Position numbers and translations under genes: made by a program
Virus record (IMG/VR): IMGVR_UViG_3300045988_119600
Length of the DNA: 64,000 nucleotides
Source of the DNA: a virus
Reading direction: 5' to 3' (one strand)
The notes under the pieces: model-generated
Told to the model about the DNA's origin: nothing
Database searches by the model: none
Seen by the model: the letters and a program-made list of their open reading frames with translations, nothing else
Shown here: in pieces, positions 49,991-52,319 of the stretch
Layout: each line of letters starts with the position of its first letter
Position numbering within the stretch: the stretch's first letter is position 1

Positions 49991-50695
49991 ATGGCTAATT
50001 GTACTACATAGGGTTGTGTCGGAACTTGCTTTGTAAGCTGTAGTAATGGATGTGACCATGGTTGTGGCGGTAATTGTTCTATGTGTGAAACTTGCGGCAC
50101 TAGCCAATGCCAAGGAAGTTGTAGAGGAGACTGTGATGGAAGTTGCTCCGGATGCGGAGGAGTTTGTAGTAATAGTTGTTCAGGCGGATGTGATGGAGGT
50201 TGCTCTGGATGTGGCAGTTCTTGCAGTACCGATTGTAGTGGAAGCTGTTCTGGCGGATGTGTTGGATGCAGTGCTAGTTGTCGCACCGATTGTAGTGGAA
50301 GCTGTTCTGGCGGATGTGTTGGATGCAGTGCTAGTTGTAGGCATGACTGTTCTGCTTGTACTGGCAATTGTACGGGAGGCTGCGATAATGGATGTACCAC
50401 TTCAGCTAATGTAAATCTTTATAATTCTATTAATTTAAGAATCGTTTTATATGCTGCTGATATTGCAAATATTTATACTATGTTAAATAAAGAATTATCT
50501 AGACGTGGATATAGTACTTTACCTACAAAAGTTTCTTCTAACAGTAAAGTTAATACAAACTTAAAAAATGAAATATTCACAAATATTTCTAAAATGTAGA
50601 ACACTTCTTATAATGGAAATGTCTGTACTAAATCTGAAATGCAGAAAGCAATTACTGCTTTAAAGTCTTTATATTCTAAAATTTTAAAAAGTTAA
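49991..50695 (+). CDS. Cys-rich CXXX-repeat protein (234 aa): about 130 aa of CSGGCDGGCSGCG-type repeats, then a Cys-free tail
   Basis: Strong RBS taaggaggacataacatATG. TAG at 50009 and 50597. Exact 60-nt tandem duplication (50226-50285 and 50286-50345). Confidence 0.55.
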
Positions 50696-50721
50696 TTTAT
50701 AAGATAAAAAGGAGAAAAATA

Positions 50722-51030
50722 ATGAAAACAATTACAGTAAATGCTAATAATGTAGAATTAAATGATAAATTAGAACGAGCTTATCAAGATCTTCTTGCTC
50801 GTCAAAGTATTATTACTTATATGATGAATAGCACTTCATTTAATAATATGGATACTGATAATTATAAAAGATATCATCAAGAATACGTTGAAAAATTTAT
50901 TGAATATGATAAAATTAGAAATAAAGTTGGAAAATATTATGATTTAGAAAAATATGGTAATAATGCCTATTGGAGTATTGACTTCCAAGCAAAAATTATT
51001 ACAATAACAATTAATGATAATGCTGAATGA
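50722..51030 (+). CDS. Small protein (102 aa); candidate CXXX-repeat modification-system accessory protein
   Basis: RBS aaaaggagaaaaataATG; stop overlaps the rSAM start (ATGA). Confidence 0.4.
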   Translation: MKTITVNANNVELNDKLERAYQDLLARQSIITYMMNSTSFNNMDTDNYKRYHQEYVEKFIEYDKIRNKVGKYYDLEKYGNNAYWSIDFQAKIITITINDNAE

Positions 51031-52319
51031 GACGTAAATTCGAATAGTATAGTGATACAATTCAAAGATTATATCCAGAACTATGGAAAAATGAAAGCGA
51101 TAAAGTTTTTGATATAACTTTACAGGTCACTGACGCTTGTAATTTAAGATGTAGTTATTGTTATCAAACTTGTAAAAAAAATCATTTAATGGATTTTGAA
51201 ACAGCTAAAAAATATATTGATATGTTAATAGTAAATCCTTAGAAAAATGATTACTTTGACCCAGATAATATTATAGGTTTAGTCTTTGATTTTATTGGTG
51301 GAGAACCTTTTTTAAATTTAGATTTAATAGATAAAGTAATGGATTATACAATTTCTAAATTAATTGAAATGAACAGTCCATTAATTTATTTTACAAGATT
51401 TTTAATTTGTACTAATGGAACATTATATTTTGATCCAAAAGTACAAAAATTTTTAGATAAATATAAGCAATGGCTATCTGTTTCTATTAGTATTGATGGT
51501 AATAAAGAATTGCATGATGCTTGTAGAAAATTTCCTGATGGCTCTGGTAGTTATGATATTGTAGTAAAAGCGATAAAAGACTGGCGAGAAAAAACTGGAG
51601 AATATCCCTGCTCAAAAATTACTTTATCTCCTGATAATGTTATGTATTTAAATGATGCCGTAAAAGCTCTTTTAGATATAGGATTTACTTCTATATTAGG
51701 GAATGTAATTTTTGAAAAAGGTTGGACTTTAGAACACGCCAAAATTTACTATAAACAATTACAAGAATTAGGACAATATCTCCTTGATAATAATTTAGAA
51801 GAAGATGTATATATTTCATTTTTTGAATATCCAGATTTGAAATTATTTAGACCAAAAGATTGGACTAATAAAGATGATCTATAGAATTGGTGCGGCGGAA
51901 ATGGAAGTATGATTGCTATGAATTATACTGGTAATTTATACCCCTGCTTACGATATATGGAAGATGCTCTGGGCGATTCCGTCCCACCTCTTATTATAGG
52001 AAATGTAAATAAAAATGAAATAGCAACAACAGAAAAACAAAAACAATTAACAAAAGAATTAAAAGCAATTAATTCTTATACTCAATCTTCTGATGAATGT
52101 CGTGAATGTCCTATCGCTACTGGTTGCGCTTGGTGTCAAGCATATAATTATCAAGATACTGGAATTCTTAATAAAAGAGTTACTTATATTTGTCCTATGC
52201 ATAAAGCTCGCGCTCTTGCCAACATTGAATTTTGGAATAAATATTATAAAAAACATAATATAGACGAAGAATTTCCGAATAATATGAAACAAGAGTGGAT
52301 AGATGAATTATTGAATTAA
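51027..52319 (+). CDS. Radical SAM/SPASM peptide maturase (CXXX-repeat or anSME-like), three in-frame TAG
   Basis: DACNLRCSYCY (CxxxCxxC). C-terminal ECRECPIATGCAWCQ...YICPMH (SPASM). TAG at 51045, 51240 and 51885 joins ORF-track pieces in one frame. Confidence 0.55.

Follow-up and report, generated by a model that had tools for sequence, protein, structure and literature searches.

A CXXX-repeat protein and its radical SAM/SPASM maturase in a large TAG-recoded phage: a candidate cross-linking system with relatives in phage tail modules

The 64,000-nucleotide stretch of viral DNA analysed here, from a large phage of the gut type (IMG/VR record IMGVR_UViG_3300045988_119600; hereafter the window) carries, at positions 49,991–52,319 of its + strand, three consecutive genes for a cysteine-array protein, a small partner protein and a radical S-adenosylmethionine (SAM) enzyme with a SPASM-type region. 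These genes very probably constitute a CXXX-repeat maturation system, and the explanation that best accounts for the whole, which we hold with slightly better than even confidence, is that they belong to a self-contained phage operon producing a cross-linked protein at a late stage. The features of the cassette are as follows:

49991–50695, + strand: CXXX-repeat target protein (the precursor), 234 amino acids (aa), TAG codons 7 and 203 read here as Gln; open reading frame (ORF) with a match to phrog_6085.
50000–50395, + strand: Cys array of the target, residues 4–135 (132 aa), with 35 Cys spaced as CX3 (25), CX2 (7) and CX4 (2).
50228–50338, + strand: perfect tandem duplication of a 57-nucleotide (nt) unit (19 aa), from Tandem Repeats Finder.
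50396–50692, + strand: non-Cys domain of about 100 aa, C-terminal after the array, with an E-x-x-R-R helix motif, from profile and alignment.
50722–51030, + strand: small partner protein, 102 aa, no TAG, a probable divergent relative of TIGR04116, from profile search.
51027–52319, + strand: radical SAM/SPASM maturase, 430 aa, TAG codons 7, 72 and 286, matching TIGR04115.
51138–51161, + strand: CX3CX2C radical SAM motif of the maturase (CNLRCSYC, residues 38–45), invariant in 30 homologues.
51891–52193, + strand: SPASM-type auxiliary-cluster region with seven Cys (289, 307, 358, 361, 367, 370, 389), invariant in 30 homologues.

By its sequence, the maturase is a clear member of the TIGR04115 family, since it reaches 404.9 bits (E = 3.8e-121) against this NCBIfam model, above the curated equivalog cut-off of 350 bits and over the full profile (positions 4–359 of 359). 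The initial annotation, made from the letters of the sequence, had already classified the cassette in this way, and both the score and the succession of precursor, partner and radical SAM enzyme, which matches the layout of the family, bear it out. The maturase gene is the second one 3' of the precursor gene, on the same strand, and ends with TAA at 52317–52319; the CxxxCxxC motif announced for an enzyme two genes downstream is indeed found there. As for the C-terminal SPASM domain announced with it, the seven invariant Cys speak in its favour, but the Pfam SPASM model stays marginally below its threshold (20.8 vs. 21.5 bits). The PHROG match, phrog_1802 (E = 2.7e-65), has no function listed. 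Several other families are hit below their cut-offs, i.e., PapB (NF047865, 192.0 bits), SCIFF (TIGR03974, 134.8 bits), CcpM (128 bits) and the QhpD type (105 bits), and membership of the first two was rejected (cut-offs of 340 and 425 bits, respectively). The anaerobic sulfatase-maturating enzymes (anSME), a match to which the initial annotation had named as the argument against its own proposal, were rejected as well (TIGR03942: 77.9 bits for a cut-off of 349), and that objection falls. The closest solved structure is the SCIFF maturase CteB (5wgg, E = 4e-22), with which the radical SAM core and the two-cluster SPASM region can be aligned. However, the alignment begins at residue 97 of CteB (query residue 28), so that the ~96 N-terminal residues of CteB, which hold its peptide-recognition domain, have no counterpart in the window enzyme, and the latter appears devoid of an N-terminal recognition element of the kind known from ribosomally synthesised, post-translationally modified peptides (RiPPs). 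In agreement, no RiPP recognition element (RRE/PqqD-like domain) was recognised in either the maturase or the partner.

The target gene starts with an ATG at 49991, preceded by a strong Shine–Dalgarno sequence (AAGGAGG, 49976–49982), and stops with TAA at 50693–50695. The size of 234 aa and the CxxxC/CxxC repeats initially described are correct, but the protein contains 36 Cys (TAG being read as sense) rather than about 40. Cys, Gly and Ser make up 69% of the array, where the Cys density amounts to 27%; such an array is far above chance expectation, and no second one exists within the window. The perfect tandem duplication is real as well, except that its period is 57 nt instead of 60 (1.9 copies, 100% identical; unit TDCSGSCSGGCVGCSASCR). 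Since near-identical phages of the window lineage differ in their number of repeats, their targets having 32, 36, 37 or 41 Cys, the duplication is, as far as these sequences tell, one recent step in an ongoing variation of array length. When the precursor family itself is considered, the 18-residue repeat model TIGR04114 yields 14.9 bits (E = 0.028) on the window target, under its cut-off of 20: for the precursor, the check proposed in the initial annotation falls short of the family score, although the Cys periodicity itself is there. On the targets of relatives, the same model gives 32.4 bits at a Blautia-type locus (L019) and no match in Caproicibacterium. The PHROG match of the target, phrog_6085 (E = 1.9e-4), has no function listed, and no homology of the target to known structural families was found in Pfam, PHROG or PDB.

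Across relatives, the Cys positions are kept while the intervening residues vary. In 69 related targets, 69% of the gaps between Cys (n = 2863) are CX3 and 29% are CX2, and the residues lying between them are nearly all Ser, Thr, Gly, Ala, Asn or Asp. With lengths of 170–570 aa and 20–96 Cys, these targets are proteins, for which the term “peptide” initially used is inappropriate. The array DNA is also open in other frames (50046–50414 on the + strand and 49930–50400 on the − strand), as is the corresponding region of two related loci (5346–6017 in L003/L004). The public gene call at the Caproicibacterium locus (193 aa) corresponds to an out-of-frame reading of the array fused to the partner protein, which leaves the true target of 235 aa without annotation; many database targets are probably hidden by miscalls of this kind. 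In the abundant ~60-kb phages of IMG/VR (L121–L160; e.g., L121 8009–9634), the Cys protein bears an extra C-terminal non-Cys domain of ~190 aa, sometimes called as a separate ORF of 168 aa. The total length varies between 331 and 574 aa in phages that are nearly identical, and the cause could be a frameshift, a receptor-binding module that varies or an artefact introduced by ORF calling.

Nearly all targets also possess a non-Cys domain of ~105 aa, whose junction to the array is conserved and whose helix motif (...LK..V..E..RR...) has its E, R and R invariant or nearly so (alignment A6). This domain is N-terminal in most targets and C-terminal in the window and in seven non-redundant loci. A profile built from 45 N-terminal domains matches the C-terminal domains of L066 and L065 (E = 4e-12); against the window domain, the same profile gives a weak match (E = 0.002 in a search of 8 sequences), which aligns through the motif. 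The domain is confined to Cys-array proteins (126/126 matches), and profile searches returned no meaningful relative in Pfam or PDB. Word-indexed protein searches with the non-Cys domain of the precursor or with the partner retrieved close relatives only.

Judging from profile comparisons, the partner is a divergent sister of TIGR04116. Directly, this model gives 13 bits on the window protein (E = 0.084, cut-off of 50, profile positions 10–89 of 90), while a profile of 38 prophage-type partners, from which the window lineage had been excluded, finds the window ORF with an E-value of 6.4e-19. The sister relationship follows from the link established by hhalign between the prophage-type partner family and the TIGR04116-type family (94.4% probability, E = 9e-8, 93 columns) and from the fact that only 4/100 relatives of the window partner match TIGR04116 directly. 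The AlphaFold2 (AF2) model of the partner is confident (predicted local distance difference test, pLDDT: 89) and consists of a beta segment, a helical hairpin and a beta-beta unit; no meaningful relative of the partner family was found in PDB or Pfam by profile search. The partner gene overlaps the radical SAM gene by 4 nt (ATGA), and the two are translationally coupled.

To our knowledge, the CXXX-repeat system (TIGR04115, TIGR04114, TIGR04116 and, for Syntrophobotulus-type targets, TIGR04117) was defined in silico and is experimentally uncharacterised. The window cassette resembles it by a maturase above the cut-off, by Cys at every fourth or third residue and by an arrangement of three genes including a ~100-aa partner. 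In contrast, both its target and its partner remain below the curated cut-offs (14.9 vs. 20 and 13 vs. 50 bits), the partner falling in a sister family and the 234-aa target ending with a C-terminal domain of ~105 aa that the system's description lacks, and the whole is phage-borne and TAG-recoded. From a sequence point of view, the maturase family is therefore already catalogued, with target and partner as divergent variants.

The window (33% G+C, with nearly all genes on the + strand) is part of a large TAG-recoded phage. This is indicated by the many long ORFs whose sole interruption is TAG, by a tRNA with the matching anticodon and by its nearest relatives, which are viral contigs of 192–196 kb in IMG/VR.

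4207–4296, + strand: tRNA with anticodon CTA, candidate suppressor for the in-frame TAGs of the cassette, from ARAGORN.

Within the cassette, the precursor and the maturase have two and three in-frame TAG codons, respectively, and the middle gene has none. The reading of TAG as Gln is supported by sequence comparison, because codons 7 and 286 of the maturase correspond to a consensus Gln in the alignment of 30 homologues, because 95%-identical phages (L008–L010) have a sense Gln codon where precursor codon 203 is TAG, and because gene callers recorded Q at the corresponding TAG positions of two close relatives (P0001, P0121). That the maturase is TAG-recoded had been pointed out from the start and is confirmed; that it would therefore be expressed late is a reasonable inference. 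In-frame TAGs are common to the cassette, the endolysin gene (8 TAG) and the fibre-like genes of the window; they are missing from the Band_7, PhoH and GyrB genes nearby. The tRNA(CTA) is 90 nt long with a variable-arm hairpin of ~20 nt, which is odd for a Gln-type tRNA and at odds with the alignment of TAG to Gln in homologues.

Relatives of the cassette were searched for by pattern scans derived from an alignment of 30 homologues (A1), and 80 loci were kept from each of two sets. Confirmed relatives are found on at least 364 viral contigs of IMG/VR and on at least 154 contigs of the species-representative genome set. The initial annotation had considered the cassette as unusual cargo for a phage and the system as one described from Bacteroidetes. 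Neither statement holds: phage carriage looks like the norm, while the 80 genome loci kept are nearly all from Clostridia (Oscillospiraceae, Lachnospiraceae and others), completed by single loci from Treponemataceae, Eggerthellaceae, Paenibacillus and a Methanobrevibacter metagenome-assembled genome (MAG), and by two of Bacteroidales type. The contig of the Methanobrevibacter MAG (L048, 7.6 kb), where the maturase relative has 52% identity, either comes from an archaeal virus (or provirus) or was wrongly binned. The named hosts that we recognised (mainly Clostridia, but also of Treponema, Eggerthellaceae and Bacteroidales type) are all anaerobes, which fits an oxygen-sensitive enzyme and, by reasoning alone, a cross-link that would be independent of oxidising conditions. 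A blastn search of the locus against GenBank phages gave no match, and our literature searches found no paper on the family or on its association with phages.

To study the genomic context, the loci were reduced to 70 clusters at 85% identity of the radical SAM enzyme, and their neighbouring genes were clustered. The canonical order, kept in about 70 non-redundant loci, comprises the Cys-array protein (170–570 aa), a partner of ~100–120 aa, a radical SAM enzyme of ~440 aa and a further ORF of ~100 aa. The commonest neighbour family, present in 45/70 loci at offsets −3 to −7, is a tail fibre (PF12571 Phage_tail_fib; phrog_7037). Other cluster representatives match, upstream, Mu Gp48, P2 gpI and a gp25-like sheath initiator, to which is added a cluster that groups with the gene recorded as Baseplate_J in Caproicibacterium, and, downstream, a holin, next to clusters resembling amidase and GH25 endolysins (from sequence and from the record of the Caproicibacterium locus). 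Altogether, phage tail or lysis families occur within nine genes in 47/59 non-redundant genome-derived loci. In 30 loci the fibre was confirmed by profile; in 19 of them no gene separates it from the Cys protein downstream, and, over the 30 loci, 19 of the fibre-to-precursor gaps range from −40 to +56 nt. The complete Caproicibacterium genome (CP135996.1) has two copies of the cassette, each between a prophage tail fibre and a GH25 lysin, while the cassette of GenBank record MT835573.1 and that of L019 are flanked by tail-like genes on either side. Other candidate cultured hosts of prophages with the cassette are Eubacterium pyruvativorans i6, Neglectibacter timonensis SN17, Desnuesiella massiliensis and Anaerobacterium chartisolvens DSM 27016. 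In a 108-kb viral contig (L161), two fibre proteins stand directly before the precursor, and they share the N-terminal domain of the fibre-like ORFs of the window. This suggests that the principal home of the family is the tail module of phages and prophages infecting gut anaerobes, where the cassette usually comes right behind the tail-fibre gene and ahead of the lysis genes. A minority of loci depart from this picture: L087 has a genuine TIGR04116 protein as its partner, the enzymes of three of the four loci L085, L087, L089 and L090 are 712–723 aa long, and the precursor of one Bacteroidales locus has a lipoprotein signal. The NCBIfam accessory models appear to describe this classical, peptide-type minority, from which the phage-type majority would have diverged.

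In the window itself, the cassette belongs to a unit of four genes (ORF153, precursor, partner and radical SAM enzyme) bracketed by terminator-like hairpins, of which the boundaries and the first gene are:

49297–49331, + strand: terminator-like hairpin (15-pair stem and T-run) that follows the Band_7 gene and bounds the unit upstream.
49469–49498, + strand: promoter-like site TTGCAA-17-TATAAT with extended TG, putative, based on a 10/12 consensus match only.
49515–49976, + strand: ORF153, 153 aa, two in-frame TAG, probably co-transcribed, ending 14 nt before the precursor ATG.
52318–52356, + strand: terminator-like hairpin directly after the radical SAM stop codon, downstream boundary of the unit (17-pair stem and T-run).

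The unit lies between the Band_7/SPFH and PhoH genes, three genes from the endolysin. The homologues of ORF153 are limited to the phage lineage of the window, and it has no PHROG match. Both ORF153 and a downstream ORF of 160 aa were rejected as components of the system, since they are confined to this lineage. No protease or transporter was found in the bracketed unit or among its immediate neighbours, although host factors are possible.

The mechanism that we propose would be as follows. The ~105-aa domain would act as a docking handle, held by the partner and/or the enzyme while the latter works along the array. At each turnover, a 5'-deoxyadenosyl radical would serve to link the sulfur of a Cys with a carbon of a residue close by, and the Gly/Ser/Thr-rich array would thereby become a ladder of small rings independent of the redox state. 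The product would remain a protein, with no dedicated protease or exporter, and would be made late, since it needs a TAG suppressor. It would end up as a rigid, protease- and reductant-proof part of the virion, either associated with the tail fibre or serving as an adhesin stalk. Regarding the parts of this scheme, we consider the thioether chemistry as moderately probable from enzyme homology, whereas the virion or tail-fibre role, although favoured by the genomic context of the relatives, which points to a late, tail-associated structural function, falls somewhat short of an even chance. More tentative still is the general proposition that, in anaerobic ecosystems, phage tails would include CXXX-repeat proteins as structural components, a dedicated radical SAM enzyme making a thioether ladder out of their 20–96 Cys.

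Characterised enzymes provide partial parallels. PapB, CteB and QhpD all form thioethers, and QhpC, the enzyme subunit modified by QhpD, is less than 100 aa long and receives three cross-links. In the quinohemoprotein amine dehydrogenase (gamma subunit, TIGR03906), Cys thioethers are thus made in a protein kept in a larger assembly, which offers a precedent, by analogy, for a SPASM enzyme cross-linking a protein subunit and not an exported peptide; yet these cross-links are few, and the substrate is neither repetitive nor viral. SCIFF peptides, with six Cys in ~45 aa, are unlike the window target. By score, the second-best family is that of PapB, the ranthipeptide maturase of freyrasin (profile positions 4–328 of 330), which installs multiple Cys-derived thioethers along a repetitive core (for the scope of PapB, see PMC12373016). 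However, PapB acts on CX3D/E in a short leader-dependent peptide, while the window target, roughly tenfold larger, has Cys at every position i+4 and few acidic residues. If the structural reading is right, a conceptual likeness exists with the isopeptide chainmail of the HK97 capsid, where a component of the phage particle is covalently braced. Cross-linking in HK97 is autocatalytic and takes place between subunits, whereas the window system, as proposed, would rely on a dedicated radical enzyme and on intramolecular thioethers.

Several observations weigh against the proposed scheme. First, the thioether proposal depends on homology at 25–30% identity to characterised enzymes, and the acceptor rule of PapB (CX3D) cannot be transposed, since position i+4 is always Cys. 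Second, the tail-linked context, strong in relatives, is absent here: the cassette, a separate operon that has Band_7/SPFH, PhoH, endolysin and gyrase genes around it, is not adjacent to tail genes and lies ~30 kb away from the fibre-like genes (7.3–17.7 kb), and profiles of five tail or baseplate gene clusters from relatives match nothing in the window. Third, in temperate phages, accessory (moron) cargo is also classically found between the tail-fibre gene and those for lysis. Fourth, the most distant enzymes (L085, L087, L089 and L090) are accompanied by an ABC-transporter-like neighbour family, and the precursors of L089 and L090 are short (65 and 92 aa), as in ordinary secreted RiPPs. Finally, gene calls in the related loci are crude longest-ORF calls, the AF2 model of the docking domain (a fragment of relative P0121) is unusable (pLDDT: 45), and a tblastn search against GenBank phages returned no relative above 37% identity, i.e., no cultured phage with a close member.

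Some of these observations define the main rival, in which the Cys-rich product would be a cross-linked, RiPP-like accessory released at lysis or exported by the host, remaining outside the virion and benefiting the phage or the lysogen as a bacteriocin, a signal or an exclusion factor. Such an accessory product is in keeping with the position of the maturase family within RiPP-type SPASM maturases, with the short precursors of L089/L090 and the ABC-transporter-like neighbours of the more distant members, with the moron site at the tail-fibre/lysis junction, and with a terminator-bracketed operon located near the endolysin. We nevertheless deem it rather improbable. Unlike a canonical RiPP system, the window cassette has no RRE, leader peptidase or transporter, and neither the unit nor most phage loci hold a protease, a transporter or an immunity gene; moreover, the targets are proteins in which no cleavage site can be recognised and which share a conserved domain of 105 aa, located in some of them at the C-terminus. 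The tight coupling of the cassette to the tail-fibre gene and its location between structural genes in MT835573.1 and L019 also argue against it, as does the nature of the host phage, ~195 kb in size, with no lysogeny functions among the ORFs examined in the 64-kb window.

Another possibility, which we regard as quite unlikely, is a metal-binding protein, whether metallothionein-like or a scaffold for Fe-S clusters or other metals, with the radical SAM enzyme performing a limited or different modification, or merely sharing the operon. The Cys density of the array and its CX2C/CX3C spacing do resemble metal-binding motifs, and the cross-links are predicted from sequence; nonetheless, in hundreds of loci the array strictly accompanies a dedicated maturase and its partner, every one of the enzyme's nearest characterised relatives is a Cys-thioether synthase, and the small intervening residues (G/S/T) differ from the Lys/Pro-rich pattern of metallothioneins. 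As to an anSME or another SPASM enzyme not acting on peptides, next to an unrelated or spurious low-complexity Cys frame, the ease with which SPASM enzymes are confused and the openness of the Cys-rich DNA in the two other frames given above lend it some substance, but it is effectively refuted by the anSME score (77.9 bits vs. 349), by the lack of a sulfatase, by a Cys frame with a strong Shine–Dalgarno sequence that runs on into a conserved domain, by Cys positions conserved among variable residues and by the gene order of some 70 non-redundant loci.

If the structural reading of a thioether-laddered virion part is true, fibre or adhesin stalks would be covalently braced so as to survive in the reducing, protease-rich gut, where disulfides fail. 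This would be the first radical SAM, RiPP-style modification of a virion protein, and a family of “peptide maturases” in databases would be redefined as phage morphogenesis enzymes. It would also explain a recurrent unknown block in the genomes of human-gut phages and provide a new genetically encoded hyper-cross-linked protein material. If the product is instead a RiPP released at lysis, the family would rank among the most widespread phage-borne RiPP systems.

Some additional features of the window can be mentioned. Five paralogous fibre-like ORFs (7362–8624, 8994–10241, 12935–14278, 14534–16039 and 16594–17688) share an N-terminal domain of ~60 aa (MA..T...RI..K.D....W...), and the last one ends (...LLWIDTTSSTGFLKYRSSNTSAWTAVPVAWT) with the C-terminal motif seen in prophage tail fibres located ahead of CXXX cassettes at other loci, where the conserved C-terminus reads ...YYNGxAWxPVxATWG. 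The Band_7/SPFH protein (flotillin-like, 461 aa, 47908–49293), encoded just before the cassette, has an N-terminal membrane segment, while the TAG-free protein of 832 aa at 30761–33259, which ends with a long coiled coil, has no match in PHROG. The endolysin (Phage_lysozyme2 and Amidase_2, 8 in-frame TAG) is followed by an ORF of 131 aa (54477–56175 for both), hydrophobic and with possibly membrane-spanning segments, which by eye is a holin candidate. Three TAG-rich ORFs (424–1020, 36552–37343 and 58995–59684; five in-frame TAG each) display, by eye only, Cys4/HNH-like or GIY-YIG-like features, which suggests homing endonucleases. Finally, the tRNA genes of the phage at 22546–26715 include tRNA-Cys(GCA), tRNA-Gly(TCC) and two tRNA-Ser. 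The Cys array accounts for 35 of the ~295 Cys codons of the window (counted over ORFs of at least 100 aa, some spurious overlapping ORFs included), and GGA represents 61% of its Gly codons, compared to 33% window-wide, matching tRNA-Gly(TCC).

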